From Desulfobacteraceae bacterium (GTDB lineage Bacteria > Desulfobacterota > DSM-4660 > Desulfatiglandales > Desulfatiglandaceae), in contig DAOUXC010000001.1 in NCBI GenBank assembly GCA_030666795.1, forward strand, positions 1-46,269: 46,269 nt of DNA. The letters are read 5' to 3'. Within the stretch, counting starts at the first letter, position 1; every line of letters begins with the position of its first letter. The notes below the pieces were generated by a model that was not told the DNA's origin, did not search any database, and saw nothing but the letters and a program-made list of their open reading frames with translations. Positions 12 to 25,190 of the stretch are shown in pieces. A program made the translations under genes and the position numbers.

Positions 12-428
12 TCACAAACGGGCATTCATCTCCCTTATCACCTGTGTCGCCTGATCCACTAAGTGAGGCAAAGGCTCGTTGCTTACTCCTACAACCCTTA
101 CATTTTCCTGTGTAAGGGGGATCAGGATCTTTCTGGCGTTGCTGGAACTGATGGCCTCTGCCATTTTGGGGGTAAGTTCCCCCATCATAGCATTGGCCAT
201 AAGGATAGCGAGGGGGCCGATGATGACATCCACACCCGGGCTGGTGCGGACCATGGCGTTTTCGCCTGTTGCCCCTTTGTTGGCACCTGCCTTCAGCATA
301 CGGGAGGTGGCAATGGAATTTGTGCCCAAAGCCAGGATCTCCAGTTCATGACCAGTGGCATCCCTCAGACGTTTGATGATGGTGGCTCCAATGCCACCTC
401 CCTGTCCATCCACGACCATCAAAATCAT
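12..428 (-). CDS. DUF3842 family protein
   Basis: 138-aa ORF. MILMVVDGQGGGIG N-terminus plus ALGTNSIATSRMLKAGA, GATGEN and GELTPKMAEAISSS blocks match my recollection of DUF3842. GAGG-type RBS before ATG at 428. Confidence 0.7.
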   Translation of the reverse strand: MILMVVDGQGGGIGATIIKRLRDATGHELEILALGTNSIATSRMLKAGANKGATGENAMVRTSPGVDVIIGPLAILMANAMMGELTPKMAEAISSSNARKILIPLTQENVRVVGVSNEPLPHLVDQATQVIREMNARL

Positions 429-1679: not shown

Positions 1680-1868
1680 TTAAAGCGGTTCAAACACGAT
1701 CTTTCTCTTGGTATTATCATAGAGCTTGAGCCTGGCCTTTAGTGTCTTTTGCTCGCCAAAGATACTGATAAGCTTGACCTCACCCCTCTCTAATTCTATG
1801 AGATCAACGCTTTCCAGGAACATTTCTTCTTCCCCATCTTTCAAAATAAATGCATGAGCTTCACACAT
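1680..1868 (-). CDS. cooT: CooT-family nickel-binding protein (copy 1)
   Basis: Listed ORF trimmed to the internal ATG at 1868, which gives the family-typical MCEA N-terminus (Cys2 is the Ni ligand in CooT). GGGGAGG RBS lies 6 nt upstream of that ATG. About 62 aa, as expected. Confidence 0.75.
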   Translation of the reverse strand: MCEAHAFILKDGEEEMFLESVDLIELERGEVKLISIFGEQKTLKARLKLYDNTKRKIVFEPL

Positions 1869-1901
1869 GGAAAACCTCCCCATTGAATGATAGCCATCGA
1901 A

Positions 1902-2102
1902 TTACTCGAGTGCCTTTAAAGCCTTGCGTAAACATTCAGTGCTTTTTGCCGCCATCTCGATCATTTCCCGGACATAAGCCGCACTATCTTTCTTCCCCGC
2001 CGACTCTAATTGCTCGGCAAACATTTCGTATTCCTCCTGGTGATGATCATTGTGTGTGATCCAGTTCTCCAATCTGATCCTTGCCTTTTCAATAAAATCC
2101 AT
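1902..2102 (-). CDS. small helical His-rich protein (HNDHH motif), unknown function
   Basis: 66-aa ORF with GGGAGG RBS. Predicted all-helical, with ITHNDHHQEE and a lone Cys near the C-terminus. Sits between two CooT genes. Confidence 0.5.
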   Translation of the reverse strand: MDFIEKARIRLENWITHNDHHQEEYEMFAEQLESAGKKDSAAYVREMIEMAAKSTECLRKALKALE

Positions 2103-2197
2103 ATTTAAAGCCTCCCTGTTTTTTCAATTCGCAACCGACTTGTTTGATAGTGATGTTAATCCATTTGTATCCCTCAATTGATAGTTGTCTTATCTAT

Positions 2198-2389
2198 CTA
2201 ATCTTCCACTAACAAAATACAGTGATCAACCAGATTCATCTCCTTGACGTACGCCTTTATCTTAAGACGTTCTCCAAATATGCTCTCAAGATAGATACCA
2301 TCATCCTCTCGCCTTAAAATATCCACACTTTCCATGATAAACATCTTCTCACTCCCGTCCTTTATAAGGTGCACATTTGCCTCACACAT
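2198..2389 (-). CDS. cooT: CooT-family nickel-binding protein (copy 2)
   Basis: 63-aa ORF starting MCEANVHLIKDG, the same fold pattern as copy 1. AGGGGGG RBS upstream. Confidence 0.75.
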   Translation of the reverse strand: MCEANVHLIKDGSEKMFIMESVDILRREDDGIYLESIFGERLKIKAYVKEMNLVDHCILLVED

Positions 2390-2442
2390 AAATAATGCCC
2401 CCCTTTCATTGTCCGCAACATCTTTGTCCGGTTATTCGATCT

Positions 2443-3924
2443 TCATTGGTCTATTACTGCATCAAAAATATCCCTGCGATTGAGATCCTGCCAATAGCTA
2501 ATGGATAGTTCACGGATATGGGCGAAATATTCGGGGTTCAAGCCGCCATATTTCTTCAAGGCTGACTTGATGTCCCCTTTGATCTTGTCGAACCAGAACG
2601 ATTTTAGCCTTAAGGTCAGCTTTTTATTCCTAAATTGAAAAGCAGCCGCCGGACACGGGTTTTCATCAGAAATTTGAATGGCCCCCCGTCCCAGACTCGC
2701 CCCCGTGGCCACCTGGAGACCATCGTTCATGCAGCTCAAGGGAGGACTATTTCCGGCGAATGAAACAACTTGCAATGTATCAAAAGGAGCTTCCAGTATC
2801 TCCCTCGCCCTGACCCCCATCTTGGCCCCGATAAGTGAATAAATACCTAAATGGCGGTGAAACTCGTTGGTCAACAGACACGCCTTCCATTCTTCAAGGC
2901 CATATTTTGCAATGATTTTTTTTACATATGGGCTGACATCCTCCCTGAAGAGTGAAGGATCATCCGGAAAAACCTTTAAGACGACCGCATTACGGGGATT
3001 CAGATGAAAGTCCGCGGCATGTCCCAGGAGTTTCAAATACGTATTATGAACGCCTGCAGCCTTAAAGGCCGAGAGAGACATGACGTGAGCATGATCGGCT
3101 GAGGGTACAAATTTGAATAGTGATGGTCGATTGAGATAAATTACGGTCATTTCATCCCAAACACAAAAATGTTTTTCAGATAAGAGCCTCTGGATGTCAG
3201 GGGGCCGGTGAATTTTTGTCACAAGGCGAGCTGCCTCCGTATCCATGGATTCTATTTGCCTGTAAAGCCCAAAATCAAAGCAAAGCAGTTTTTCCTTAGG
3301 AAGGCTCATGCAATAAATTCTCAAACCTGATCCAAAGACAATGCGTGCGGCACTCAGATCTCGATTGGTATTCCAATCAGGCAGGGCGGCTTCAGGAGGT
3401 GAACCGTAATAGATGAGACGAGAGATCTTATTTTTTATCCGCGGATTTAACCTCAGGGCATCGGCCAGGTTTGTCAGGGGGCCGAGGCAGAGATATAGGA
3501 TAGCCTGGTCCTGAGATTCCAATATCTTTACAATCTCTGCTGCTCCCCTGGGGCCCACGGGAATATTGTCGGGCAATTTCACCTGCTCCGGCCACTTTAT
3601 ATCCTCTGAAAGTGCCCTCCAGGGAGGTGCCGCCTTCTTCAGGAGCCGTCCTTCGGCAATTCCAGTGCCTTTTCTTTCAAAATAACTCAAAAGCGTCCTT
3701 AAATTCCGGGCACCGCCGCAAGGGGATGCTGCTCCGTCCGAAGTGACCATAAGCGGGATATCAAACATGTCCGAGTTAAGGAGCATGACAACGGCCCGTA
3801 TGTCATCCATGGCCATGTCGGTATCGACAATGGCAGATACCCTATAGGTATGGGCATATGCGAAACAGGGAAAAAGGCAAAACAATAAGAACACATATGC
3901 AGTGATGTTTATTTTACGAAACAT
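2443..3924 (-). CDS. secreted fusion: inosine-uridine nucleoside hydrolase-like domain + FmdE-like domain
   Basis: 493 aa. Signal peptide ...FPCFAYA|HTYRV. IUNH motifs DTDMAMDDIRAV and LGPLTNLADAL. C-terminal HRHLGIYSLIGAKMG and SCMNDGLQVATGASLGRG resemble the FmdE (PF02663) core. Confidence 0.72.
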   Translation of the reverse strand: MFRKINITAYVFLLFCLFPCFAYAHTYRVSAIVDTDMAMDDIRAVVMLLNSDMFDIPLMVTSDGAASPCGGARNLRTLLSYFERKGTGIAEGRLLKKAAPPWRALSEDIKWPEQVKLPDNIPVGPRGAAEIVKILESQDQAILYLCLGPLTNLADALRLNPRIKNKISRLIYYGSPPEAALPDWNTNRDLSAARIVFGSGLRIYCMSLPKEKLLCFDFGLYRQIESMDTEAARLVTKIHRPPDIQRLLSEKHFCVWDEMTVIYLNRPSLFKFVPSADHAHVMSLSAFKAAGVHNTYLKLLGHAADFHLNPRNAVVLKVFPDDPSLFREDVSPYVKKIIAKYGLEEWKACLLTNEFHRHLGIYSLIGAKMGVRAREILEAPFDTLQVVSFAGNSPPLSCMNDGLQVATGASLGRGAIQISDENPCPAAAFQFRNKKLTLRLKSFWFDKIKGDIKSALKKYGGLNPEYFAHIRELSISYWQDLNRRDIFDAVIDQ

Positions 3925-3975
3925 TCCTTACCTCGCTAATTCCTGTTGTTTTATTCACTCAATCCATACCTATAA

Positions 3976-4737
3976 TTACTTCACTTTGAAAGTGAAAGAG
4001 GCATTATACCTGTACTTATCACATTCCCTAATATTAATGTAGGGCACCTCGTACATAACATTCGCCATCCATCTTCCATTTCTTGGTATCTTGATATCAG
4101 CAAGGCCTCTTTCATCGGTCTTTGTATTCAAAGCGAATGCATTCGGCAGGTCTGAAAAACCTTCATAAGTAGCGTTCACGTTAATGAAAGGAAGGGGTTT
4201 CCCATCATAAAGCACCTTTACCCGAAAAACATCGCCCTCTTTCAACCCTCTCGTATCTGTAAGAGAAACGATCTCCAGTATATCGCCTGTGGCCCGATCC
4301 GTCATTTTTGCCTTTTCGCCCGCACAGATTATGGCCTTGGCCCGCATATCATAACGGAAGCAACTAATCACATTCTCCAGTCCCTTTTTGGACCGGAGCT
4401 TATATCCATCCGTGGTCTTACTGAGAAAACCCGGATGGATATCCGCCAGTATAATGTACGTGCCCTCTTCTCCGGGGACAAATTCAAACCCGGTTGAAGA
4501 GATCCGTTTAAGAGGAACCTTTTCGTCCTTTGAATCCAGGGCATAAACCTGGTGCAGGAAGTTTGCCTTGATCACCTCATCTTTAGGGAATTTATGTCCC
4601 CAGCCGATCTCAATCCGAACAGACTGACCGACCTTGGCTTGCTCATTATCAATGTTGAGCCACAAGCGGTGAGCATGGGCAATTGGGGTCGAAAAATAGA
4701 ATAGTAATATCAGTGCAAACAAAAGAATCTTTTTCAT
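3976..4737 (-). CDS. DUF4198 periplasmic Ni/Co-uptake-associated protein (copy 1)
   Basis: Signal peptide ...PIAHA|HRLWL, the typical DUF4198 mature N-terminal His-x-x-W. ATG 4737 preferred over GTG 4740 because of GAGGT spacing. Confidence 0.78.
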   Translation of the reverse strand: MKKILLFALILLFYFSTPIAHAHRLWLNIDNEQAKVGQSVRIEIGWGHKFPKDEVIKANFLHQVYALDSKDEKVPLKRISSTGFEFVPGEEGTYIILADIHPGFLSKTTDGYKLRSKKGLENVISCFRYDMRAKAIICAGEKAKMTDRATGDILEIVSLTDTRGLKEGDVFRVKVLYDGKPLPFINVNATYEGFSDLPNAFALNTKTDERGLADIKIPRNGRWMANVMYEVPYINIRECDKYRYNASFTFKVK

Positions 4738-4843
4738 CACGGAATACCTCGTCTGTTATTTAGCATCTCCATTCAAATAAAACTCCCCGAAGGTATTTTA
4801 CGGCGTCATGTTCGGGGAACTCACTCACAAACGTTCTCTGGTG

Positions 4844-5755
4844 TTATTTATTGAGCTTTTCCTGCATCCGTTTCATGGCCGTTTCATATGGCTTGCCCTC
4901 CATAAAACGTCCGACAAGGAGAAGGCCCATGAATCTTTCCTTGTCTTTTGACACTTTTTCTCCCATATCGGCCACTGTCCCTCGCACGATGCGCTCCCGG
5001 TCGGGATAACCGGCCCAATAGACCACGGCGCAGGGCATATCCGGCGGCAGAACTTCCTTTAGTGCTGCAAAAAGACCTTTTGGTTTCCAGAGAGCCATGT
5101 AAAAAACCATGGTAGAAGGATATTTTGCCAGATCCCTTAGAACCTGTCGCTCCTCCATCCGCCATCCAGTCAAAGAAAAAGGGGCGGTTTGTATGACAAA
5201 ATGCGTGTCATGTGCGGGGATGGTGCTTTTACCCAAGGCAGCCATGGCCGCCGCATCGCATCCCATGCCCGGAATAATGACCAGGTCCTCTGAGTCCAAT
5301 TGCTCCGCATACCAGTGGCTCGGGCCGTAAAGGCAGGGATTTCCGGAGTCCAGGAGCCCGATATCTTTTCCCTCTGTCATGAGGCGTTTGAATTGCCCCA
5401 CCCGCTCATCCCGTATCCGGAAACGCTCTACTTTGAATTGGACCAATTCCTCCCTGTTTAACTTCTGCTGCGGCTTCCCTTTGTAGTCCCAAATATCCGT
5501 CCATGGATCAAACAGGACGGGTTTATCGCCTACGTACTCCGCAAACAGCTTCACATGTTGATCCGAGGCCACAATAATGTCCATTTTCTTGATGGTTTCC
5601 AGTGCCTGCAGTGTCGCGGTCCCGGGACCTGCCGGACCGGTCCCGATAACATAGAAATGGCCGCGGCCCCAGGCTGCTGCCTGTGATGGCCACAATACCG
5701 CTGCAACTGACAGGGTGATCACTGCAACAAGAATTATCCGCTTTATTTCCTTCAT
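4844..5755 (-). CDS. exported tetrapyrrole (corrin/porphyrin) methylase-fold protein, CbiF/CobM-like
   Basis: 303 aa. N-terminal K/R-rich plus hydrophobic signal or anchor (…SQAAA|WGRG). TP_methylase motifs VIGTGPAGPGTATLQA and LDSGNPCLYGP. C-terminus VVYWAGYPDRERIVRGTVADM...LLLVG is CbiF-like. Confidence 0.72.
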   Translation of the reverse strand: MKEIKRIILVAVITLSVAAVLWPSQAAAWGRGHFYVIGTGPAGPGTATLQALETIKKMDIIVASDQHVKLFAEYVGDKPVLFDPWTDIWDYKGKPQQKLNREELVQFKVERFRIRDERVGQFKRLMTEGKDIGLLDSGNPCLYGPSHWYAEQLDSEDLVIIPGMGCDAAAMAALGKSTIPAHDTHFVIQTAPFSLTGWRMEERQVLRDLAKYPSTMVFYMALWKPKGLFAALKEVLPPDMPCAVVYWAGYPDRERIVRGTVADMGEKVSKDKERFMGLLLVGRFMEGKPYETAMKRMQEKLNK

Positions 5756-5772
5756 GAGTTTTTCTCCTCATT

Positions 5773-7857
5773 TTAAAACTTAGAGCCAAACTGAAGTCCC
5801 CAAACATACTTGGGCATTTCAAAGCCAGCCTGTTCCTGGTAATCGGTACCGGTCACATTGTTGACAAAGGCTGAGGCCGTCCACTCCACACCATGAAATT
5901 TGAACTTCTGCTCAATGCCTACGTCCACCGTGATATAGTCATCCAGTTCAGGGCCCCGCTGAGAATCCCGACCACCCACATAACGTGAGCTTAACTCCAG
6001 CCATCCATCCGGCCAGACATTATACCGGGCTAATAATTTGATCTTGTGCTTAGGCAAAAGAGCAGGCAGGTAGTATGACCAAGCTGCTTCAAACCCTGTT
6101 TTGTCCGCATCATACTCCTGATAGACATAAGCTGCCGTTGCCCGAAACCTTTTTCCCACATGGATGGCGGCCTCAAGCTCTACTCCGTAAAGTTTGAAAT
6201 GATCAATATTATAGAGGCAGTTACTGCCGAAGGACGGTCCCAGGGCACCTGCGGCTGTGATGCCGTTGTCATTGATGAAGTCCTTGATGTCATAATAAAA
6301 ACCGGCCGTTCTCACGGTCAGAGGTTTAAAATCCTGAATTACCCCGAGTTCATACTCCCAGGCCGATTCCGGTTTTAGTTGAGGGTTATCTAAGGACGCG
6401 CACCGCGCCCACCAGTAATAGTCTCACGGGCACGGGAGCCGGTAGGAACGGCTCACCGCGGCATAGAGGGCCGTTTCAGGAGTTGCCTGGAAATCAACCT
6501 TCATGCTTGGATAGAAACCGGATTCGGTCTGTTCTTTGCCTTCCTGGGGCCAGTTAGCGGGAAACGGACCTTGTGCAAAGTTGGAAAAATACGTATCCAT
6601 GTCAATATGGTAGTAGCGAACTCCGGGTGTAAACCTCCAGCGATCACCCACGCTGATGATATCCTGGATATATGCCGACTGGACTTTGTAGATTATGGGA
6701 TTTTCGTCAGGCCAGCCAAGTTCCTGCCATTCGGCTCCCACTGTTACACTATGGGAATCAAACAGATCAATATCCCGGTACTCGACGATGACACCCTGTG
6801 TCTCATCGTCCGCGAAATCGTCTTTCTGGAATACGCCCATAGAATTGTACATACTGGTCCACCTTCTGCCCACGGTCTGAAAATAGTGGACCTTGGCGAT
6901 TCCGGGACCCATGGGAACGTCAAGAACAGCATCCAGGTAGGTGGTGTCTTTTTCCCATTTCGGGGTTTGTGGCCCGGCAAATTGAGGCCAGTCTATATGT
7001 CTCAACTGGTCACGATTTGCGTAATATTTTGGGTAGTCATCATCATAGTCGGCCCGGGCCGGATCATTTATGACCGGATCACCGTAGACCACTTCGGAAC
7101 GCTTGACTCCAAGGCTGAGGGTGGCATCACCGGGGAGAAAAAAGGTCAGATGCCCGTTAAAGCTATCTGTTTCCTGAAAGTTATTTCTGAGATAACCATC
7201 GCTCTCCTGCGTGCTTACTGAAAAGTTATAGCCCACAAAATTCCCCGCACCGCCTTTAACGGAAGCTGATGCGTTCCAGGTGTTATACTTCCCGTAAGCC
7301 GTCCTGACATCGGCGGCAGGTTTAAGGTCCCCGGTCTTCTTTCCCTTCTTCGTAACGATATTTATCACACCTCCGATGGCAAAGGGATGAAGTACCGAAT
7401 GTCCTCCGCGAATGATTTCAATATGGTCAATATCATCCATATTCAACGTGGACCAGTCCACAATGTACCTGCCGTAATGTCCTGTATGATTGATACGCCG
7501 GCCGTCGATTTCTATTACCAGACGGCCTTCATTAAGACCCCGGATGGATACCTCATCACCAGGGCTTGCCATCAGCGGATTGACACGCTGCACATCAACC
7601 CCGCCGATCTCGGTAAGCACATCGGTCAGGGTGCGAACCTCACCGGGCTTTTTGAATTCATCCATCCTGATAATGGTTTTTTCGGTTGTGATTTCAACGC
7701 CTGGCTGTGGGGCCATAACCGTAATTTTGCCGATATCAATGGCTTCTGAGACGTCCTCCTGGGCAATTGCTGAAATTCCGAACACGCCTGGTGCAAAGGT
7801 AATCGCAGTCAGAATACCTATTATCCAAAAAAAGGTTCTTTTTCTCCTTGATTCCAT
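5773..7857 (-). CDS. TonB-dependent outer-membrane receptor with a single in-frame TGA at 6424-6426 (Sec-recoding candidate or nonsense pseudogene)
   Basis: Listed ORFs 6424..7857 (signal peptide, plug domain) and 5773..6315 (ends ...LQFGSKF) are in the same frame. The gap translates with no further stop and contains the conserved NPQLKPE motif. Confidence 0.8.
6394..6426 (-). other. UGA codon plus downstream GC-rich hairpin (SECIS-like)
   Basis: RNA reads UGA-GACUAUUACUGGU-GGGCGCG-GUG-CGCGUCC. 7-bp stem (one G.U). Apical loop lies 21-23 nt after UGA and begins with G. Confidence 0.4.
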
Positions 7858-8060
7858 TTTTGTTTCACTCCTTCCTCGATTAATGAGTTGAAGATGGCCC
7901 CGGAACGCCTGAAGGGATTGACGGAGGAATACTTCGATGGTATAAAGGAAATTGAAGTATCCCTCATCCCGAGGGACTTCATCCCGGGAGGGCAGCCGGA
8001 TTTCCTTTGGCGAGGAAGGCTGTCCTCCTTTTTGTTATAAGCTTCTTATGTCAATCTGTT

Positions 8061-8088
8061 AGTGAATATATCACTTGTGTGAAATCAC
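8061..8088. promoter_or_regulatory. candidate operator palindromes upstream of the receptor operon
   Basis: AGTGA-atata-TCACT (8061-8075) and GTGA-aa-TCAC (8079-8088) lie between the upstream terminator and the receptor start. No regulator assigned. Confidence 0.25.
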
Positions 8089-8108
8089 CTCCTTTCAACC
8101 TTTGCTCA

Positions 8109-8166
8109 ATAAAAAAAGCCAGGAACGCACTACCGGATTCCGCTCACGGTCTGGCCTTCCTGGCTT
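8109..8166 (-). terminator. intrinsic terminator after tonB
   Basis: 10-bp stem AAGCCAGGAA/TTCCTGGCTT followed on the minus strand by a run of 7 U (A-run 8111-8117 on plus). Confidence 0.65.
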
Positions 8167-8302
8167 ATTGTTTTAGGTCTTATTTTTGAGTAAAGTACTG
8201 GCTAAAATCGCAATTTCTTATTGCGTATTTAATTCGTAGTGTTACTTACATTTCTTGCCATCCATTTGTCAAGAAAAATACATTATCTTTGTGCAGTGTT
8301 CA

Positions 8303-9001
8303 TCACGTAAGCTCAAACACGATTGTCAACTCTAAAGGTATTGATCCTGCGAACAGATTCGCCGGGGGTCTCGGGAAGGGTGATGCCTTTTGAACGGCCC
8401 TGAGAGCTGCCTGGTCCAGGGCCTTGTTTCTTGAACTCCTGACAACCTTCAGACTGATTAACCGGCCGTCGGATGCAATCACAAAGCCGACAACGGCACG
8501 GCCCTCAATCTGTCTGACCCTGGCCGCAGCAGGATATGCTTTATAACGCTCTATCCTGAGCCGCACCATCTCAAAATATTCATTGGAGGTTATGTAGTCG
8601 CTCGTTTCTCCCAATGTCCCAGGCTCCCACGCAGCAATTTCTAACCTTGTATTCTCCAGAATGTCCGGCATGCTTATCCTCTCCACCAGGCTGTCCGGCA
8701 GATCCGTGCCTGCCTTTTCGATCTTCAAAGGTTTAAGTCTCGGGACGACTCTTTTGCGCACCTTCAGCCTTTTGACATCATGCGGCCTTACAATCATTTT
8801 GGGCCGTAAGCGTGGTCTCGGTATGCTTCTTGATGGCGGTTTCGAAATATCCCTGAGAGTCAACTCGATATAGGTCAATGCGCTCGACTTATAAATCCCG
8901 GCAATATGCATGAATATCACTAAATGAATGCCAAAAGAGACACCGATCAGGCCGCGCAGCAACCAGTTGGGTTTTGTTTTGTTTTTCGACACGGATTTCA
9001 C
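8303..9001 (-). CDS. tonB: energy transducer TonB
   Basis: 232 aa. N-terminal TM anchor, Pro/Arg/Lys-rich linker, C-terminal YPAAARVRQIEGRAVVGF...ALDQAALRAV TonB_C pattern. GTG start. Confidence 0.85.
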   Translation of the reverse strand: MKSVSKNKTKPNWLLRGLIGVSFGIHLVIFMHIAGIYKSSALTYIELTLRDISKPPSRSIPRPRLRPKMIVRPHDVKRLKVRKRVVPRLKPLKIEKAGTDLPDSLVERISMPDILENTRLEIAAWEPGTLGETSDYITSNEYFEMVRLRIERYKAYPAAARVRQIEGRAVVGFVIASDGRLISLKVVRSSRNKALDQAALRAVQKASPFPRPPANLFAGSIPLELTIVFELT

Positions 9002-9009
9002 GGATTTCT
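8988..9009. repeat. direct repeat copy A flanking the GxxExxY cassette
   Basis: GACACGGATTTCACGGATTTC (tandem CACGGATTTC decamers). Overlaps the tonB start codon. Confidence 0.7.
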
Positions 9010-9030
9010 CTGATTAAAGAGCTAATTGCT

Positions 9031-9399
9031 TTATTTCTTATCGAATACTTTTCTTTTTATTTGAACGGAATGGCCAAAGTTTATCAACAAACCAACTTCT
9101 ATACCGGTTGCTTTCAAATAATTGACTAATTGAACCTCATGGATCTGTGCCAGATCTTTTACAGCTTTGAGCTCAAGTATCGCTTTATCTTCAACAATTA
9201 TATCTGCCACATATTCACCTACAATTTGATCCCGATAATAGACTTTAATGGGCATCTCGCTACTCGCTTTCAAGCCCATCCTCTTCAATTCAATCATAAG
9301 AGCATTTTGATAGACCTTTTCAAGGAATCCAAAGCCAAGTTCGTTATGGACCTTATATGCTGCGTTTATGATTTTCTCTGTCAGGTCGGAATATTTCAT
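9031..9399 (-). CDS. GxxExxY protein (PD-(D/E)XK-like superfamily)
   Basis: 122 aa. ...AAYKVHNELGFGFLEKVYQNAL... contains the eponymous G-x-x-E-x-x-Y. Typical length. Confidence 0.85.
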   Translation of the reverse strand: MKYSDLTEKIINAAYKVHNELGFGFLEKVYQNALMIELKRMGLKASSEMPIKVYYRDQIVGEYVADIIVEDKAILELKAVKDLAQIHEVQLVNYLKATGIEVGLLINFGHSVQIKRKVFDKK

Positions 9400-9417
9400 T
9401 TAGACTCCTCATCGTTA

Positions 9418-9439
9418 GACACGGATTTCACAGATTTCA
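9418..9439. repeat. direct repeat copy B flanking the GxxExxY cassette
   Basis: GACACGGATTTCACAGATTTC has one mismatch to 8988-9009. The decamer array continues to 9446. Confidence 0.7.
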
Positions 9440-9474
9440 CGGATTAAATTTAATTTTTTTCAAAAAATCCCTGT

Positions 9475-9882
9475 CTAAAAATCCTTCTCCGTGGCCAAGC
9501 AGAGTCTTGCGGCACCTGCCGCCTTTGCCACATCCATCACCTTAACCGCCTTATTGAGAATCACGGCCCTATCGGCCCTGACCACAACTAGCTTATCCTT
9601 CCTCTCGCCGATCATTTCCTTGAGCCGGTCAAAAAGACCGGCAAGCGGAACCTCCTGATTTTCCAGAAAGGCGCGCCCGTCTCTGTCTACATAAACCGTT
9701 ATTTCCTGCTCTGTCTGGGGTGCGGAAGCCTTTGCCTGGGGGAGTTTTATCTTGATCCCCTCATCCACCATAAAGTTGGTGGTCAACAGAAAGTAGACCA
9801 GGAGCAAAAACACGATGTCAATCAGGGAAGTAAGCGGCATCTGCACCTGGAAACGTTCTCCTCGTTTTCTATGAACAAGCAT
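9475..9882 (-). CDS. exbD: biopolymer transport protein ExbD/TolR
   Basis: 135 aa. PLTSLIDIVFLLLVYFLL TM plus the conserved periplasmic domain pattern. AAGGAG RBS. Confidence 0.9.
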   Translation of the reverse strand: MLVHRKRGERFQVQMPLTSLIDIVFLLLVYFLLTTNFMVDEGIKIKLPQAKASAPQTEQEITVYVDRDGRAFLENQEVPLAGLFDRLKEMIGERKDKLVVVRADRAVILNKAVKVMDVAKAAGAARLCLATEKDF

Positions 9883-9894
9883 CGCTTATCTCCT

Positions 9895-10503
9895 TCAGGA
9901 CCGCCGGCCTAAAGCCTTGATGAAGGTTACTGTCCCGTCCTGGAGCTGGGACTCATATCTATCCACACGGGCAACCAGGTAACTGTGGGCCACAATGGTG
10001 GGAAGGGCCACGGCGAGACCTAAGGCAGTAGTCAGCATGGCCTCCCATATGCCTCCCGCAAGGACCGCCGCATTCACCTTGCCGCCCATCTGCTGAATAA
10101 CCATGAATGCCTTTATCATTCCGAGGACGGTTCCCAAAAGTCCTAACAGCGGGGCGATGTTTCCGATGGTGGCCAGTGCCTGAAGATATCGGGAAAGACC
10201 AGTCACTTCCTCATCCGTAGCATGGATAATCACGGTCTCCAAGGTTTCTCTGTCCTGATCCTTGACTTCCATGGCCTGTGCCAGGACACGTCCCATGGGC
10301 GAATCGCTTTTGCCGGCCAGCTCGTATGCCTGATGATCCTCATTGTTTTTGATATGCCGGCCTATTTTTTCCACCAGACCATCCCCCCGAATCCGCACCC
10401 GGGAATACCGGATAAGCCGTTCCAAAAAAATGGCTAATGCGATTACGGAACAAAGAAGGATGGGCACTACAAGAACCCCACCCTTTGATAAAAAATCAAT
10501 CAT
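9895..10503 (-). CDS. exbB: MotA/TolQ/ExbB proton channel protein
   Basis: 202 aa. Three TM segments and LATIGNIAPLLGLLGTVLGMI signature. AAGGAGG RBS. Confidence 0.9.
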   Translation of the reverse strand: MIDFLSKGGVLVVPILLCSVIALAIFLERLIRYSRVRIRGDGLVEKIGRHIKNNEDHQAYELAGKSDSPMGRVLAQAMEVKDQDRETLETVIIHATDEEVTGLSRYLQALATIGNIAPLLGLLGTVLGMIKAFMVIQQMGGKVNAAVLAGGIWEAMLTTALGLAVALPTIVAHSYLVARVDRYESQLQDGTVTFIKALGRRS

Positions 10504-10515
10504 ATTGACCTCCTT

Positions 10516-12321
10516 TTATTTTCTCACCTGCCTACCTGCTATCTCCTCAACATCAGGTTTTCCGTCAAAATTCAGGTCCTTGGACCGTTTGACCAGGGCC
10601 TCTGACTCATCATAGTCCTCCCAGAGATCAGGCTTGCCGTCCCCATTTGTGTCCTCTTCCACTGCGGTCAGCCGGCCTTCTTGATAGTAGTACCAGATAT
10701 CCGTCCTGCCGTCGGAGTTATTATCCTTTTCCGCCCGGATAACCTCTTCGGCCTCGTTGTAAAACCAGGTGATATTTAATCCGTCACTGTTCCCATCTTT
10801 CTCTTCACTTTTCCTAAGTCTGCCCTTTTCATCATAGTATTCCTTTAAATCAATAGTCCCATCCCAATCTTCATCAATCTCCTTGAGTCTCAAAACGCCT
10901 TTTTTGTAGAAACAGCGCAGATCCGCCGACCCATCCCCATCCTTATCCAGTTCCATTACCACGGACCATTCATCCCGGTTGAACCATTGCTCGGTCTCAA
11001 ACCTGCCGTCCTGGTCCTGGTCCCTGACAAGTCTTTGTTTTTTCCCATTCCCATAAAAGACCTTCAAGTCAACCTCCCCGTTTCCACTTTCGTCTCTTTC
11101 GATTCTGGCAAGGAATCCACCCTTATAATATTGCCATGCATCCGTTTTGCCGTTCAGGTCCGTATCGCTCAGAACCCTCTCCTTTTTCCCTTTCCCATTG
11201 AAATACACGCTTATATCAGGCTTTCCATCACGGTTTTTGTCCTGTGTCTGGAGGTGCATATTGCCTTTTCGAAAAAATGATAAGGTTTCCATGTAACCGT
11301 CGCCGTCGGCGTCTGTTTGTGCCTTAACCGGTGCACCCCTGCAATAGGTCCTGATCCTGTCTATCCTTCCGGTGTATCTGGTGTCTTCCTTGATTATTTC
11401 CACCAGGCCCTGTGCGTCGAAATGGCAAAAGAAATCCATCTTTCCATCCAGATTGGTATCTTTTTCCTGGCAAACCGGTTTTCCATTCTTGAAACGCATG
11501 AATATGTCAAAGGATTTGTCACCATTGGTGTCTTTTCGCTGTTCAGATGGAAGGCCGTCCCTGAATTTTGTAATGATCTCAAACCACCCATCCTGATCCA
11601 GGTCCTTTTTTTGCTCAACCAGTTTTCCATGGCTGTAAAAACGGGTCTCTTCCATCTTTCCATCCCCATCCGGGTCGTGACGGCTCTCCTTTGGAAGGCC
11701 TTCGGAATCATAAAAAATGATCCTCTCCACCGTCCCGTCACCGTCATCATCAACTTTTTTCTCAACGGGCTTATCTTTCACATAGGTCTGCCATATGTTC
11801 ACGTTTCCGTCGCCGTCCGAGTCCCTGGTGGAACGGGCCAATCTCCCTTCTTCAAAATAATAAACACTGTCAAACAGGCCGTCTCCGGTGACATCTTTTT
11901 GTATCTTCAATGGCCGTTCCAGGGGGTCAAAGGTTATTATCTGATTAATCTTTCCGGTATCCAGTGACGTCCGCTCCTGCCGGATTCTTTTTCCCGCCTC
12001 AAAATAATCCCGATTATCAATCCGTTGGTCGTGATTCGTGTCTCTGTCTATCCTGATGACCTGCTCATTTTCATAATACTGGAAGCGGTCCATAAACCCG
12101 TTGCTATTACTGTCGATTTCCAGCATGGTGATCTTTCCCTCTTTGTCAAAGTGGGCAATCTGGTCTATGTTACCGTCTTTGTTTGTATCTTTTTTAAGCA
12201 CATCCCCGTTTGCCGAGGCCGCACCAAATCGGTAAAGGCCCACCCAGACCAGCAAGGCCCCGAAAAGGATATATTTGATTCCTGTTTTAAAGAGTCTTTC
12301 TTTTTGTGAACGGGTAAACAA
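10516..12321 (-). CDS. membrane-anchored or secreted DxDxDG (EF-hand-like) repeat protein
   Basis: 601 aa. N-terminal hydrophobic segment, then about 20 repeats of roughly 24 aa of the form [KR]D-x-[DN]-x-DG-x-x-[DE]...[FY]-x-x-G. TTG start with GGGGGA RBS; start is uncertain. Confidence 0.7.
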   Translation of the reverse strand: MFTRSQKERLFKTGIKYILFGALLVWVGLYRFGAASANGDVLKKDTNKDGNIDQIAHFDKEGKITMLEIDSNSNGFMDRFQYYENEQVIRIDRDTNHDQRIDNRDYFEAGKRIRQERTSLDTGKINQIITFDPLERPLKIQKDVTGDGLFDSVYYFEEGRLARSTRDSDGDGNVNIWQTYVKDKPVEKKVDDDGDGTVERIIFYDSEGLPKESRHDPDGDGKMEETRFYSHGKLVEQKKDLDQDGWFEIITKFRDGLPSEQRKDTNGDKSFDIFMRFKNGKPVCQEKDTNLDGKMDFFCHFDAQGLVEIIKEDTRYTGRIDRIRTYCRGAPVKAQTDADGDGYMETLSFFRKGNMHLQTQDKNRDGKPDISVYFNGKGKKERVLSDTDLNGKTDAWQYYKGGFLARIERDESGNGEVDLKVFYGNGKKQRLVRDQDQDGRFETEQWFNRDEWSVVMELDKDGDGSADLRCFYKKGVLRLKEIDEDWDGTIDLKEYYDEKGRLRKSEEKDGNSDGLNITWFYNEAEEVIRAEKDNNSDGRTDIWYYYQEGRLTAVEEDTNGDGKPDLWEDYDESEALVKRSKDLNFDGKPDVEEIAGRQVRK

Positions 12322-12335
12322 AACCGGTCCCCCAC

Positions 12336-12388
12336 AAAAAAAGCCACTAAGACATTACAGGTTTCGGTCCTGTGTGCCTTCGTGGCTT
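12336..12388 (-). terminator. intrinsic terminator/attenuator in the 5' leader of the repeat-protein/exbBD/tonB operon
   Basis: Minus strand AAAGCCAC...(inner ACAGG/CCTGT stem)...GTGGCTTT followed by U7. Ends about 14 nt before the TTG start. Confidence 0.55.
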
Positions 12389-12472
12389 TATAATTAGTCT
12401 TATATTAAAGATAGTAATGAAATTAAACTATGATCTGCCCTGCTCGCACCTTCGAGATGCCCGTTGCGCACA

Positions 12473-12501
12473 TTATTAGAAAATTACGGAAATCATGTCA
12501 A
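12473..12501 (-). promoter_or_regulatory. sigma70-like promoter
   Basis: Minus strand TTGACA-17 nt-TAATAA. Confidence 0.45.
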
Positions 12502-12719
12502 TGTTTTTCATGTGGAGCCCGTTGGATTCACATAAACCCCGGGTTACTTTTGGGAAATAACATTTTTTTTATTCTCAGAATCCTTTCAAAAAAATGGACA
12601 GTTGCATCTTCACCTTCACCCAGTCTCTATCGATTCAAACAAATTAAATGTGACCGTTTTAAGCAAACCAGCGGATGAAGGTCTGATACGGCGTTTTAAA
12701 AGAAGAACTGAAAAAAGCC

Positions 12720-12748
12720 TTGACATTTTATTTGGGATAACGTAATAG
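12720..12748 (+). promoter_or_regulatory. sigma70-like promoter
   Basis: TTGACA-17 nt-TAATAG, about 130 nt upstream of the 12878 start. Confidence 0.4.
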
Positions 12749-12877
12749 TTTTGTCAAGCCTAACATTAACGATTTTTTTATTGATAATATCGATAAAACG
12801 GCAGGATGAACGGCTTTTCCTGAATGGCTAAAGGTTTAATTGGTTTTTATCCACAGCCACAAAAAACGAGGTTAAAA

Positions 12878-13273
12878 ATGACAAAAAGACAGTTGGAGGA
12901 CTCTGTAAAGGAAAAATTCGGAATGGACATGCGTTTGTTTTTAAGAAAGAAGGTAGAAGAGGATTCTCTGTATGATTATGAAATTGCCGCCATGTTAAAT
13001 GTAAGGCCGTCTCTTATCGGGAAACTGAGATTATCCATCGGGGTCAAAAGGTCGAACGGGTTTTCAAGACGGTTTGAGAGGACCTATGGCCGGGGCGCAG
13101 TGGAAACATTCAAGAAAATGATAGAGGATCCGGACAAATCTCTTTCTGATGTGGGGAGGCATTTTGGGTTTTCCAGACAAAACGCCTGGCTGGTTTCCAG
13201 GAAAATCTACGGATATCCATACACGAAAATTTTCATGAAAAAAATACTCACAAAGAAACAGGAGGCTGCCTGA
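12878..13273 (+). CDS. hypothetical protein with two HTH-like segments
   Basis: Listed ORF trimmed to ATG 12878 (ACGAGGT RBS 6 nt upstream). YDYEIAAMLNVRPSLIGKLR and LSDVGRHFGFSRQNAWLVSRK look like helix-turn-helix units. Confidence 0.5.
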   Translation: MTKRQLEDSVKEKFGMDMRLFLRKKVEEDSLYDYEIAAMLNVRPSLIGKLRLSIGVKRSNGFSRRFERTYGRGAVETFKKMIEDPDKSLSDVGRHFGFSRQNAWLVSRKIYGYPYTKIFMKKILTKKQEAA

Positions 13274-13304
13274 GATGTATTGTTAGGGAGATCCGGGCTT
13301 TTTT

Positions 13305-13333
13305 TTGACAATAATGTTAGGAAATCCTAATAA
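13305..13333 (+). promoter_or_regulatory. sigma70-like promoter with embedded TTAGGAaaTCCTAA palindrome
   Basis: TTGACA-17 nt-TAATAA. A perfect inverted repeat TTAGGA/TCCTAA at 13317-13330 sits in the spacer and the -10. Confidence 0.5.
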
Positions 13334-13422
13334 TATGTGGGTAAGCCAAAAAATGTTTCGCTCCGTATCGGACGGATTGTCTTTAAAACGGTATTTGTTT
13401 GAAATTTTAAAAGGAGGGAAAA

Positions 13423-13611
13423 ATGCAAAAAAATAAAATGGAACAAATCGCTAATATCTGGTCGTCAGCAGACAGGATAAAAGGGTATTCAAGGCGCTTC
13501 GGCCTGATAAACATGCGGTCGAGGATAAATGTCAACGGTTCCCTCAGCCGGGAAATCAAGGAACATATAAATAAAATGGGATCAGGAAACAGAGAGAGTA
13601 TTTCAGAATAG
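13423..13611 (+). CDS. hypothetical 62-aa protein
   Basis: Strong RBS AAAGGAGGG 5 nt upstream of the ATG. First gene of an apparent three-gene operon. No family recognised. Confidence 0.45.
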   Translation: MQKNKMEQIANIWSSADRIKGYSRRFGLINMRSRINVNGSLSREIKEHINKMGSGNRESISE

Positions 13612-13649
13612 TCGATTTTGGAGGTTTGATTCAATGTGGAGGTCAGCAT

Positions 13650-14030
13650 ATGCATAAGAATTTCAGGATTGAATGCCGGAGAAGTGTCGGCAATCTTCAC
13701 GTATATCCCAAGGGTATCCTGGATGGAAGTTCGGCCTGTCAGATAATAAACGTGATCAGGGAAAAATATAAAGGAAAAGGAAGGGTCTTTATCAATACCG
13801 ATCAGATTAAAGAAGCACTTCCTTTCGGGACCACAACTCTTGGTTTCCAAATGGGTGAAATCACTATTCCCAGGGACAGAATTTATTTTAAAGGCAAGCA
13901 TGCATTTGTGATGGCACCAAATGGATGTAGAGTCATTGCCGGAAACAACAGGGGTCTTTGCCGGTGTGGTGGTAACTGCGCCGAGTGCTTATGCCGGCGT
14001 CTTGGAAACAGGGCGGAAAAACGGGCGTGA
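13650..14030 (+). CDS. hypothetical protein with Cys-rich C-terminal tail (CRCGGNCAECLC)
   Basis: Listed ORF trimmed to ATG 13650 (GGAGG RBS). 126 aa. No family recognised. Confidence 0.6.
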   Translation: MHKNFRIECRRSVGNLHVYPKGILDGSSACQIINVIREKYKGKGRVFINTDQIKEALPFGTTTLGFQMGEITIPRDRIYFKGKHAFVMAPNGCRVIAGNNRGLCRCGGNCAECLCRRLGNRAEKRA

Positions 14031-14067
14031 AAAATTCTTAAAAAATCAGATTAAGGAGGGATGTATC

Positions 14068-15366
14068 ATGCATGAAGCAATACCCGGTTTGAACAATATT
14101 ATTATGCCGAAGACAGGTTATGGGTTTAAACAATGTCTGCCTGTCTCGAAAAACGGGGTTGAAAAAAATGTCAACATTCCGGACGACCTTGAAGGATCTT
14201 CCCTCAGACATATATGGGAAATCAAGTATTTTCTCAAGTGTCCTGTGGTCGGGACCTGCCTTACCATACAGGAACAAAGACGGATACTGAAAAAGGCCCG
14301 GTATTCAACAAAGGGATTAAAACCCTATCAAATCCACGGGTCCATAATGAATCGTCTTGACTCGAAAAATCCAGTTTCACTGAAGCTTGACAACTATCTC
14401 AAGTATAAATATCGGGGAGAAATGCCTCTGCTTAAGGAACTTAATGAGGACGGATTCATGAGATCATGGCGGCAATTTTTTTTGACAGAGAGAATGGAAG
14501 CCCTGTTCTTTGTTGCCGCTGTAAGAAAAGATATTTCAACGGAATCCATACAGGAGATATTCGGTGAGATCCACATGCTGGGCCATGCCAATCTGCATGA
14601 AGCTTCAAGGCACGGACAGGATCTTATGTTCCAGCTCGAGGCCAACCAAAAGTTGGCAAAACAGTTAAACCGTGCAAAAAAACGCTCAAGGGGATTGCAA
14701 AAAGAGGTTTCGGCCCTCAAAGTATCATTGCGGGAATCCCGAAGCCTTCTGCAAAAAAACAAAGGAGATCGCGACAGGGTTGAGGATGAAAAGGGACATG
14801 AGGCTGCCATTGAACCTGAAAACCAGGCCCTTCAAATCAAGTTTCAAGAATTAAAATCCCATTCTGAAAATCAATCCGAACATCTTCAGGCTTTGGAAAG
14901 GCAAAGACGTCGTCTTGAGATTGAGGTTTTCGATCTCAAAGCCACAAACGGACATCTTTCCAAGGAATTAACGGAACTTGTGGAAAAGGTCTCATCCGTT
15001 GTTGAATGCACGAAATGCCATGAGACAAACTGCCCTAAAACTCAACTGGCTGAGATGCGAATCCTCATTGTGGGCGGCATCACCAAGATGAAGGGTTTCT
15101 ATCAGCGCTTGGTGGAAAAACGCGGCGGCATTTTTGAGTATCATGACGGGTACATGCAGAATGGGCAGGAAGGCCTTGAACAGAGAGTGAAGAGATGCGA
15201 TCTCATCCTTTGCCCCGTGGACTGCAACAGCCATGGGGCCTGTTCAAAGGTGAAAAAACTCGGCCAAAAATACGGGAAGCCCTATAAAATGCTTCGCCGT
15301 TCAAGCCTGAACGCCATATCAAATGCCCTGCTGGAAGAAAAACAGAACGGTATGCTTCTTCAATAG
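14068..15366 (+). CDS. coiled-coil protein with C-terminal DUF2325 domain
   Basis: Listed ORF trimmed to ATG 14068 (AAGGAGGG RBS 7 nt upstream). C-terminus RILIVGG...FEYHDG...CDLILCPVDCNSHGA...VKK matches my recollection of DUF2325. Long heptad region in the middle. Confidence 0.7.
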   Translation: MHEAIPGLNNIIMPKTGYGFKQCLPVSKNGVEKNVNIPDDLEGSSLRHIWEIKYFLKCPVVGTCLTIQEQRRILKKARYSTKGLKPYQIHGSIMNRLDSKNPVSLKLDNYLKYKYRGEMPLLKELNEDGFMRSWRQFFLTERMEALFFVAAVRKDISTESIQEIFGEIHMLGHANLHEASRHGQDLMFQLEANQKLAKQLNRAKKRSRGLQKEVSALKVSLRESRSLLQKNKGDRDRVEDEKGHEAAIEPENQALQIKFQELKSHSENQSEHLQALERQRRRLEIEVFDLKATNGHLSKELTELVEKVSSVVECTKCHETNCPKTQLAEMRILIVGGITKMKGFYQRLVEKRGGIFEYHDGYMQNGQEGLEQRVKRCDLILCPVDCNSHGACSKVKKLGQKYGKPYKMLRRSSLNAISNALLEEKQNGMLLQ

Positions 15367-15536
15367 TTGACGATGAGTTAATCTCATTAAAGCAATTGTC
15401 CTTTTGGGATCCTTTCCTGCCGGCATGGTGACACGCCCTGCTGTGATTAAGTCTATTAGATGCAGATCGGTAGTTCTCTCCCTACAATTTGAATAACCTG
15501 ACCGCAGGGGGGCTACCGTGCCGTCCTGAACCACCC

Positions 15537-15573
15537 TTGACAAAAGTTTAGGATTTTCATAATCTTTTAGGCA
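15537..15573 (+). promoter_or_regulatory. sigma70-like promoter with TTAGGA and TTAGGCA motifs (autoregulation candidate)
   Basis: TTGACA-17 nt-TAATCT. TTAGGA at 15548 and TTAGGCA at 15567. Confidence 0.5.
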
Positions 15574-15614
15574 TACCGAGCAGACAAACTAAAATTTGAA
15601 TGCAGGAGAACCTC

Positions 15615-19150: not shown

Positions 19151-19160
19151 GTTCCGAGCC

Positions 19161-19388: not shown

Positions 19389-19617
19389 TTTAATTGTTTT
19401 CTTTGTCCCCAAGTTTTTATACCCCCTGCCCCGTAAAATGTGAGCTTTTTACAAGACATCCATTTTGACTGAATTTCGCATAATGTAATTCTTTTGGCAT
19501 CCATATGCAAGCGCCTTTTTCAAACCCGCATGCAGTCTCATCCCTGTGCTCTTCCCTCTTAAATGTGGCCATATGGATAGGAAATCATTAAAAAATAAAT
19601 ATATTCCAAAAAAGCGC

Positions 19618-25160: not shown

Positions 25161-25190
25161 GGGACGTTTTAAAACCTGCTATGTCAAAAG

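Follow-up and report, generated by a model that had tools for sequence, protein, structure and literature searches.

The question raised by this locus is what it takes up, and in what form. Positions 1 to 46,269 of contig DAOUXC010000001.1, from a Desulfobacteraceae bacterium (assembly GCA_030666795.1), were analysed and are called the window here; a string of seven genes at 1680–7857 of this window encodes a TonB-dependent receptor, an exported protein with a class III tetrapyrrole-methylase fold (the methylase-like protein), a DUF4198 protein, an exported fusion of a nucleoside hydrolase to FmdE (IUNH–FmdE), two CooT homologues and a small His-rich protein. A preliminary description had taken the string for a TonB-dependent uptake operon with an unusual periplasmic toolkit, a candidate system for the acquisition of nickel, cobalt or a corrinoid-type compound. 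We conclude that the operon is genuine, serves TonB-powered uptake and is widely conserved among sulfate-reducing bacteria of sediments (Desulfobacterota). Its receptor appears to contain selenocysteine (Sec), a structured leader RNA lies in front of it, and nickel or cobalt is the cargo that best fits the evidence, as had been suggested.

A conserved TonB-dependent operon

All seven genes lie on the minus strand (ORF list and Pfam scan; ORF, open reading frame), separated by gaps of 17–100 nt, and a sequence scan found no convincing terminator inside the string. Pfam confirmed each of the domains that had been named. Directly upstream, on the same strand, are tonB, exbD, exbB and a gene for a 601-residue repeat protein; together with the domains of the receptor, the tonB-exbBD genes bear out the assignment to TonB-dependent uptake. 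These four genes (8303–12321) had escaped the preliminary description, as had the Sec codon of the receptor, the leader RNA and a DUF3842 gene at 12–428. TonB (8303–9001) scored 73.6 bits against TIGR01352 tonB_Cterm (cut-off 27.1), and the Pfam TonB_C domain was found in L001, one of the related loci described below. ExbD (9475–9882) was recognized from its conserved position and an ExbD-type N-terminal helix in the translation, and ExbB (9895–10503) from tblastn orthologues of 70–83% identity, which occupy the same position in nine loci; MotA_ExbB was called in L003. The tonB transcript ends at a terminator-like hairpin at 8111–8165 (minus strand), identified by sequence inspection as a 9-bp stem, AGCCAGGAA/UUCCUGGCU, followed by a U run. 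It aligns in L031, L059, L038, L030 and L006, and was passed over by the automatic scan because its loop is long.

A search in which an alignment of the methylase-like protein (A1) served as the sole query yielded 70 loci, from species-representative genomes of different species. Nearly all belong to Desulfobacterota, and the carriers include strain NaphS2, Desulfonema magnum, Desulfocarbo indianensis, Dethiosulfatarculus sandiegensis and SEEP-SRB2 metagenome-assembled genomes. The gene arrangement is conserved far beyond chance: the receptor gene lies directly upstream of the methylase-like gene in 46 of 56 loci, and downstream of it stand DUF4198 (27/53), IUNH–FmdE (20/42) and a 159-residue exported protein (16/42). 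The order of the core genes, whose conservation the preliminary description had proposed as a check, is thus retained in related genomes, and many genomes carry several tandem cassettes. CooT and the small His-rich DUF8180 protein, which had been counted as parts of the system, fall outside this core; CooT occurs anywhere in the locus in 7/68 cases and recurs in at least three different arrangements, and DUF8180 was found solely in the window and in L001, L004 and L009.

One genome ties the unusual components to each other directly. In L055 a single ORF (8579–10885) encodes a signal peptide, IUNH, FmdE and a methylase-like domain, as became clear when the frame in which tblastn had matched was translated, and this triple fusion links the three parts and agrees with the earlier view of IUNH–FmdE and the methylase-like protein as exported. 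An apparent 822-residue ORF in the same locus is in the wrong frame and has no Pfam matches. The gene before the fusion encodes FmdE with a DksA/TraR-type zinc finger, and further upstream lies a gene for an 878-residue protein with a C-terminal AhpC/redoxin domain. In Desulfonema magnum (L036), five Acido-Lenti-1 copies, in inverted pairs, lie between cassette genes at 9073–20389; this locus has many methylase-like and DUF4198 paralogues and no leader RNA.

A selenocysteine receptor

The receptor gene (5773–7857, minus strand; 694 codons) was called as two ORFs, 6424–7857 and 5773–6315, because of an in-frame TGA at 6424–6426, and gene callers give products of 477 and 180 residues. The frame runs uninterrupted across the TGA (RLPCP-TGA-DYYWWARCASLDNPQLKPES), which as Sec478 stands in the context R-L-P-C-P-U-D-Y-Y-W-W-A-R-C-A, with the codons for Cys476 at 6430–6432 and Cys486 at 6400–6402. 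One explanation would be that the TGA is a true stop, the receptor a pseudogene or split gene and the locus in decay, as the split calls taken at face value would have it. However, the same TGA and the coding flanks on both sides of it are kept in 43 orthologous loci at 54–77% protein identity, a conserved hairpin with constrained synonymous sites follows it, and a curated NCBIfam selenoprotein model spans the junction, so that we regard this explanation as almost certainly wrong.

The hairpin (GGGCGCG-GUG-CGCGUCC; 6389–6423, minus strand), which resembles a selenocysteine insertion sequence (SECIS), begins 13 nt 3' of the UGA and has GGU in its loop. Across 38 distinct sequences the synonymous sites of its Ala-Arg-Cys-Ala codons are near-invariant and the neighbouring codons vary freely, and L035 shows one compensatory change. 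An early fold of this region together with upstream sequence had given a different, non-significant structure and was superseded by the comparative analysis. The best 120 database homologues of the receptor are 423–544 residues long, mostly about 470–490, as expected if gene callers halt at the TGA; no full-length receptor, whether read through or with Cys for Sec, was found among these 120. No tRNA gene was found within the window.

The two halves of the receptor matched PF07715 (Plug, 54.7 bits) and PF00593 (TonB_dep_Rec barrel, 42.7 and 52.8 bits). Against the family model NF049947, 'TonB-dependent receptor, PCPU motif-type' (cut-off 800), residues 9–477 scored 858 bits and the C-terminal part 315 bits. 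Judged from its sequence, the receptor is therefore a selenoprotein and a member of NF049947, which with its sisters NF049944-46 is the nearest described relative, and it shares the PCPU motif with an in-frame TGA. Sequence inspection also placed a TonB box, GKITVMA, at 7711–7731 after the signal peptide and found an aromatic C-terminus (...GSKF), in a protein built as a plug and a 22-strand barrel. In an AlphaFold model limited to the N-terminal 477 residues (pLDDT, the predicted local distance difference test, 67), 13 barrel strands follow the plug and strand 13 ends at residue 469; an independent manual count of strands from the C-terminus agrees with this placement. Cys476-Pro-Sec478 and Cys486 would therefore lie where strand 13 reaches its top and extracellular loop 7 begins, a placement to which we attach moderate confidence. 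Locating the motif through a solved structure failed, as the match to PhuR was weak and did not cover it.

The same loci hold a sister receptor class with two TGAs at the equivalent place (P-TGA-I-TGA-D), and their ordinary receptors have GFRAPTLFELY at the position of the Sec motif. The two-Sec class (R-x-P-U-I-U-D) was seen in L014, L015, L016–L018, L021, L026, L039, L041, L045, L053, L056, L066 and L071. These PUIUD receptors also precede methylase-like genes, several of them behind the same leader RNA.

The first report of TonB-dependent receptors with Sec came from deep-Sep in 2025 (PMC12013277), and a 2026 review lists FCYXU as the sole type of Sec receptor (PMC13188914). In the literature searched, we found no publication on the function, partner genes, regulation or Sec position of the PCPU type; the family is catalogued yet functionally unstudied.

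The receptor evidence also bears on another account of the locus, that it is an ordinary iron–siderophore or haem receptor operon within a metal island, with unrelated genes beside it. The window does contain two feoB genes and a DtxR-FeoA regulator, the source annotation of the receptor homologues reads 'iron complex outer membrane receptor', and siderophore and haemin receptor models match weakly. However, the siderophore, haem and B12 receptor models stayed far under their cut-offs and NF049947 passed; the accessory genes are syntenic over about 70 species and partly fused; and a scan with a Fur-box consensus found nothing upstream of the receptors. An iron receptor of this kind is very unlikely.

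A structured leader RNA

Alignment of the regions upstream of the receptors exposed a conserved block, which in the window is a 117-nt element at 7916–8032 (minus strand) that folds into four helices. P1 pairs GGAGGACAGCC with GGCUGCCCUCC, P2 is a small inner hairpin, P3 is a short GC hairpin, and P4 is a 12-bp helix, GAGGGAUACUUC/GAAGUAUUCCUC, capped by the conserved loop UAUACCAY; CGUCAAUC comes after the helix. Searches with a covariance model (R1) yielded about 28 copies from the genome loci and, after a pattern scan, about 28 more from metagenomes. A second model (R2), in which P3 and P4 were added to R1, scored divergent copies higher (68 bits instead of 35 for the strain NaphS2 copy, L034 7645–7766, for example) and gave 58 copies in total, every one on the sense strand. 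The window copy scores 115 bits with R1 and 107 bits with R2.

The fold is supported by covariation. Among 59 distinct sequences, 83.6% of cells are paired, compared with 36–55% when the partners are slid, 24 of the 30 base pairs have changed on both sides, and none of 500 shuffles reached any of the five observed measures. The many G–U pairs and the strict strand bias favour an RNA over a DNA operator. Every copy whose downstream genes could be resolved precedes uptake genes: where the contig allowed, these were PCPU or PUIUD receptors, other TonB-dependent receptors, DUF4198–receptor operons, and CobN/ECF or FmdE/ABC operons (ECF, energy-coupling factor; ABC, ATP-binding cassette). The last two kinds stand behind a variant with a larger P1 insert. 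In L082 (5376–5507) and L105 (9322–9451) the variant precedes a CobN-like chelatase and an ECF-like transporter, and in L065 (139–270) genes for an exported FmdE protein, a methyltransferase, a PCPU receptor, FecCD, the methylase-like protein and an ABC ATPase.

The ribosome-binding site includes GAGGAA, for which UUCCUC in the 3' arm of P4 would be a possible pairing partner, so that the leader may act on translation. Rfam gave no relevant match for the leader (7700–8400, E<=10) and none for five variant-leader loci. Neither a scan of the whole window with Rfam 15 at gathering thresholds nor a search of seven related 20-kb loci (146 kb) found a cobalamin, NiCo, molybdenum cofactor (Moco) or other relevant family; apart from a group II intron in the window and the Acido-Lenti-1 repeats in Desulfonema, nothing matched. 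No NikR or Fur box was found upstream of the receptors when 1.7 Mb of loci were scanned with consensus sequences, which is weak negative evidence. We propose that the leader is a riboswitch-like candidate and a candidate new RNA family.

Periplasmic and cytoplasmic partners

The methylase-like protein, DUF4198 and IUNH–FmdE all have signal-peptide-like N-termini on sequence inspection, which are kept in their homologues. The methylase-like protein (4844–5755, minus strand) belongs to PF00590 (TP_methylase, 113 bits), and its closest solved sequence relative is CbiF (PDB 1CBF, 2CBF; E = 5e-18). The preliminary description had called it CbiF/CobM-like. The fold is the same as in those precorrin-4 C11-methyltransferases, but the window protein is exported, lies outside any cob/cbi operon, has an invariant Cys/His set (C141, H147 and C242) and a ~25-residue insertion relative to CbiF, and failed the CbiF equivalog TIGR01465 (79.9 bits, cut-off 259.65). 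The motifs GPAGP, GNPC and PGMGC replace GPGDP, GDP and PGVTS, and since GTGPAGP and SGNPC occur in 15 of 15 aligned members, both aspartates of the S-adenosylmethionine (SAM) motifs are gone. The best Foldseek matches are class III methyltransferases, without CbiF being singled out over RsmI-type members. Lacking both aspartates, the protein is probably not a methyltransferase; SAM is not expected in the periplasm, so that an exported member of this fold is best read as a binding or otherwise non-methylating protein. Another methyltransferase fold that is not cytoplasmic was seen in L048, L050 and L051, which have no receptor: there an exported protein with a class I methyltransferase domain and an Lcl_C (DUF1566) C-terminus flanks the methylase-like gene.

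DUF4198 (3976–4740, minus strand; PF10670, 137 bits, cut-off 34) is a NikK-like periplasmic metal-binding protein. Its predicted mature N-terminus is a His (AHA|HRLW, cleavage site placed by eye), which together with the His of a GWGH motif is kept in about 50 homologues. In the related IsDUF4198, nickel is bound with a Kd of 18 nM through His1 and His18 (PMC12537917), and the two His of the window protein correspond to these. The Neisseria protein Zcp, of the same Pfam family, binds zinc (PMC12663993; PDB 9MHI series), and alignments with 9MHI and with 9MHK, its His-to-Ala variant, show that none of the three positions of the three-His zinc pocket is a His in the window protein. A nickel-type site is therefore predicted for the window protein. 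The 159-residue exported protein of the relatives also begins with His after its signal peptide, and it scored 60.9 bits (cut-off 100) against NF058648, 'NikL family nickel/cobalt ECF transporter subunit', the match covering the N-terminal half of that model.

IUNH–FmdE (2443–3924, minus strand) combines PF01156 (IU_nuc_hydro, 76 bits, cut-off 34.2) with PF02663 (FmdE, 44 bits). In 20 orthologues it keeps DTDxxxDD (DTDMAMDD in the window), WDE, H-x-H and SC..DG.Q..TG, and a His at the predicted mature N-terminus (AYA|HT). Retention of DTDxxxDD and WDE makes a hydrolase site plausible, and the RihA, RihB, RihC and UriH equivalogs were not reached (27–57 bits, cut-offs 382–459). At E<=1e-10 the family comprises 861 database clusters, and among the best 120 listed all but one share the two-domain architecture (119), and the source names are solely 'nucleoside hydrolase', or that together with the FmdE subunit name.

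Three small proteins complete the string, all encoded on the minus strand and predicted to be cytoplasmic: a CooT homologue (2198–2389; PF10133, 75 bits, cut-off 27), DUF8180 with its HNDHH motif (1902–2102; PF26551 in precomputed Pfam matches) and a second CooT homologue (1680–1883; PF10133, 62 bits, same cut-off). Both CooT proteins begin MCEA and so have the conserved Cys2; the second probably starts at its second Met, at 1868, as its L004 orthologue begins MCEAHAF. Nickel is bound by CooT through Cys2 with a Kd of 9 nM (PMC6006190). No carbon monoxide dehydrogenase (CODH) or CooC gene was found among the larger window ORFs scanned, and linkage to cooS or cooC was therefore not seen.

Routes across the inner membrane

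The preliminary description had remarked that the string encodes no ABC or ECF importer. This holds for 1680–7857, but not for the relatives. Neighbour clustering found an APC-family permease in the operon in 28 loci, typically in the order receptor, methylase-like protein, DUF4198, IUNH–FmdE, APC permease and 159-residue protein, and, in another 11 cases, a FecCD/ABC/Peripla_BP_2 importer, whose operon includes the methylase-like gene in four loci (L065, L067, L068 and L070); the L065 copy has no signal peptide. In L003/L023 and L029, all from Desulfatiglandales, genes for CbiM (285 bits against a cut-off of 173), CbiQ and CbiO divergently adjoin the system. The window itself has a DUF1007 and NicO pair at 37394–38888, a candidate inner-membrane nickel/cobalt transporter that could serve an operon without an importer of its own.

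Part of the operon may also lie past the left edge of the window. In L004, the closest relative with a long enough contig, CooT is followed by DUF3842 (4542–4958), an APC permease and the 159-residue protein, and DUF3842 also stands beside CooT in L029 and L034. The window ends at a DUF3842 gene (12–428, minus strand; PF12953, 183 bits), a probable downstream member, so the remaining operon genes may follow it. A gene for an NAD-dependent epimerase (671–1657), on the opposite strand between CooT and DUF3842, indicates a local rearrangement.

Two loci without a receptor place the methylase-like gene in other company, between a PBP_like_2 binding protein and molybdoenzymes (L062) or near a ModA-type SBP_bac_11 protein and DUF364 (L057). 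Another possibility, then, is that the system takes up molybdenum or tungsten, as thiomolybdate or thiotungstate, or a pterin-nucleotide cofactor fragment, with Sec and Cys binding the thiophilic metal and FmdE acting as it does in the operons of molybdenum and tungsten formylmethanofuran dehydrogenases. FmdE is part of the fusion and occurs again at 34417–35031 of the window, as exported proteins in L065 and L027 and with a zinc finger in L055, and Sec ligates molybdenum or tungsten in formate dehydrogenases. However, this reading draws on two loci, both receptor-less, FmdE has no assigned function, and DUF4198, the NikL-like protein, CooT and CbiMQO all indicate nickel or cobalt. In addition, no Moco riboswitch was found in the window, at 7700–8400 (E<=10) or in the seven related loci, and a TonB-dependent receptor is not normally required for oxyanions. 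Uptake of molybdenum or tungsten is on these grounds improbable, if somewhat less so than an iron receptor.

Nickel, cobalt or a metal chelate

We propose that the operon serves TonB-energised acquisition of a scarce thiophilic trace metal by bacteria of sulfidic sediments, with nickel the most likely metal and cobalt the second, and probably as a small complex instead of the bare ion; to this reading we would give about an even chance. Nickel or cobalt is favoured because of the nickel-type ligands of DUF4198, the NikL-like protein, Cys2 of CooT and the neighbouring CbiMQO genes, and we count the DUF1007 and NicO pair as a further indicator. An organic carrier is suggested by the APC and FecCD-type importers of the relatives together with the intact hydrolase motif.

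In such a scheme, the leader RNA would gate expression of the operon; its structure is supported by the comparative data, and its regulatory role and ligand are our suggestion. At the cell surface, Cys-Pro-Sec and the further Cys may form a cluster of soft ligands that captures the metal where sulfide outcompetes ordinary ligands, as Sec is known to ligate nickel in [NiFeSe] hydrogenases. TonB, ExbB and ExbD, encoded just upstream, would drive passage across the outer membrane, and periplasmic DUF4198 would then take the metal, as may the NikL-like protein with its N-terminal His in relatives. The methylase-like protein and IUNH–FmdE, which are fused in one genome, may act as one unit that binds or dismantles the organic carrier. 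Transfer across the inner membrane, which the string in the window does not encode, would in relatives fall to the APC permease of the operon, a FecCD-type ABC importer or the adjacent CbiMQO. In the cytoplasm of this lineage, the two CooT proteins, DUF8180 and DUF3842 might receive the nickel.

Several observations weigh against this reading. Nickel or cobalt is the most likely substrate on gene content and ligand motifs, and the metal itself is deduced from these. An APC permease of the amino acid type, the FecCD/Peripla_BP_2 importers and an intact-looking nucleoside hydrolase point to an organic substrate, and the CobN-like chelatases behind the variant leader, with the tetrapyrrole-enzyme fold of the methylase-like protein, fit a tetrapyrrole-type cargo. 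CooT is missing from most loci, and the two receptor-less loci put the methylase-like gene beside ModA/TupA-like proteins and molybdoenzymes. The NikL-like score lies below the curated cut-off of 100, the placement of Sec is based on a partial model of moderate confidence, and no site for a known nickel regulator was found in the loci. Moreover, DUF4198 members also bind zinc (PMC12663993), and the nickel-binding IsDUF4198 is stabilised by zinc and cobalt too (PMC12537917).

The points that suggest an organic cargo lead back to the model of the preliminary description, in which a metallated tetrapyrrole, a corrinoid or another nucleoside-bearing metal chelate is salvaged. On this model the receptor imports the chelate, the methylase-like protein holds the macrocycle without SAM, IUNH cleaves the N-glycosidic bond, and CobN-like chelatases or other enzymes free the metal or remodel the cofactor. 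It is consistent with CbiF, the closest solved sequence relative of the methylase-like protein, binding cobalt-precorrin-4; with the intact Ca/ribose (DTDxxxDD) and WDE motifs of IUNH in 20 orthologues and the fusion of IUNH–FmdE to a methylase-like domain in L055; with the variant leader in front of CobN-like chelatases and ECF-like transporters in L082 and L105; with L129, which encodes a receptor, a BtuF-type binding protein, FecCD, an ATPase and CobN; and with the FecCD/Peripla_BP_2 importers of 11 loci. On the other side, no cobalamin riboswitch (RF00174) was found in the window or in the 146 kb of the seven related loci, and the BtuB models failed by a wide margin, with the receptor scoring 57.7 bits against TIGR01779 (cut-off 599.7). 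Foldseek favours CbiF no more than RsmI-type members, and DUF4198, NikL-like proteins and CooT carry metal ions and not tetrapyrroles. The FecCD-type importers are themselves ambiguous, as the FecCD-type system NiuBDE of Helicobacter pylori imports Ni-(His)2. The corrinoid part of the model thus finds no specific support, whereas a nucleoside-bearing chelate in the wider sense is compatible with the hydrolase motif and the chelate-type importers. Taken as a whole, we consider the chelate model doubtful, although it is the most probable of the alternatives.

The nickel or cobalt reading can be extended to a more specific proposal, which we offer tentatively and would expect to fail more readily than to hold. 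The leader would be a new riboswitch class that senses the imported nickel or cobalt, or its carrier, and shuts off Sec-receptor operons; the Cys-Pro-Sec of loop 7 would ligate the metal; and the exported methylase-like protein and IUNH–FmdE would bind and cleave a ribosylated metal carrier independently of SAM.

Relation to known systems

The locus works like known TonB-dependent metal uptake, and its parts find parallels in several systems. We take DUF4198 to be the NikK-type fold family; PDB 9GCB is annotated as NikK, although the window protein matched it in sequence at E = 0.53 only. As with the Nik(MN)QO and CbiMNQO ECF transporters, the relatives have a NikL-like protein in the operon and CbiMQO beside it, but here the accessory-type proteins join the operon of an outer-membrane receptor instead of ECF genes, and the window has no ECF genes. 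The FrpB4/FecA3 and NiuBDE/CeuE system of Helicobacter likewise imports nickel in a TonB-dependent manner, and some relatives of the window operon follow the receptor with a FecCD/Peripla_BP_2-type importer; however, that system, which was compared by description, has no selenocysteine, is under NikR control instead of behind a leader RNA, and lacks methylase-fold, IUNH–FmdE and DUF4198 partners. BtuB behind the cobalamin riboswitch is likewise a TonB-dependent receptor operon preceded by a structured leader, but here the BtuB models failed. The NiCo (czcD) riboswitch is a precedent for a metal-sensing RNA, although it controls exporters, and the leader matched neither the cobalamin nor the NiCo RNA family at E<=10. 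We found neither the operon as a whole, with its co-conserved periplasmic toolkit, nor the methylase-fold partner, the triple fusion or the leader RNA in Rfam 15, under other NCBIfam and Pfam names or in the literature searched; the toolkit is thus as unusual as had been claimed.

The surrounding genes

The 601-residue repeat protein (10516–12321, minus strand) has EF-hand-like DxDxDG repeats, is anchored by an N-terminal membrane helix and has partial NCBIfam matches to the Lsa25.6 adhesin and lanmodulin families. Its gene opens the exbB-exbD-tonB operon in at least nine loci, and stands 5' of exbB-exbD-tonB-receptor in L008–L011, L017, L018, L038 and L039. In the window a PDDEXK_3 (GxxExxY-type) gene (9031–9399) is inserted between exbD and tonB, where L008–L010 leave no room for it.

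A metal-homeostasis island occupies 15600–28661. It contains genes for a DtxR-type regulator with a FeoA domain (15600–16373), two divergent feoB genes (16766–19150, minus strand; 19973–22441, plus strand), a second DUF4198 gene (22984–23808) and a P-type ATPase gene (26164–28026), as well as genes for a 484-residue protein without a Pfam match, a transglutaminase-like protein and a MarR-type regulator. Further on, a class I SAM methyltransferase gene (33772–34395) is followed by that of the cytoplasmic stand-alone FmdE already mentioned (34417–35031). This pairing also occurs in the L065 operon, but the two methyltransferases share just 24% identity, and we do not treat them as orthologues. 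Directly after this FmdE gene lies the group II intron (35097–36857; RF02001 D1-D4, 123 bits) with its reverse-transcriptase/maturase ORF (35526–36857).

Significance

It is poorly understood how anaerobes acquire nickel and cobalt when sulfide keeps the free metals extremely scarce. Carbon cycling in marine sediments and at hydrocarbon seeps is driven by enzymes that need these metals, namely CODH/acetyl-CoA synthase, hydrogenases and corrinoid enzymes. The outside of an outer-membrane transporter is, to our knowledge, an unusual place for the residue of a selenoprotein, and if the more specific proposal made above holds, the Sec/Cys cluster would let the cell pull metal out of sulfide complexes. 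The methylase-like protein and IUNH–FmdE would then be a new periplasmic machine and a SAM-independent reuse of the tetrapyrrole-methylase fold. The locus therefore provides a testable system that combines an outward-facing Sec in an outer-membrane transporter, a conserved periplasmic set and an apparently new regulatory RNA, whose ligand, if found, would name the substrate. Cultured carriers, namely strain NaphS2, Desulfonema magnum, Desulfocarbo indianensis and Dethiosulfatarculus sandiegensis, make such experiments feasible.

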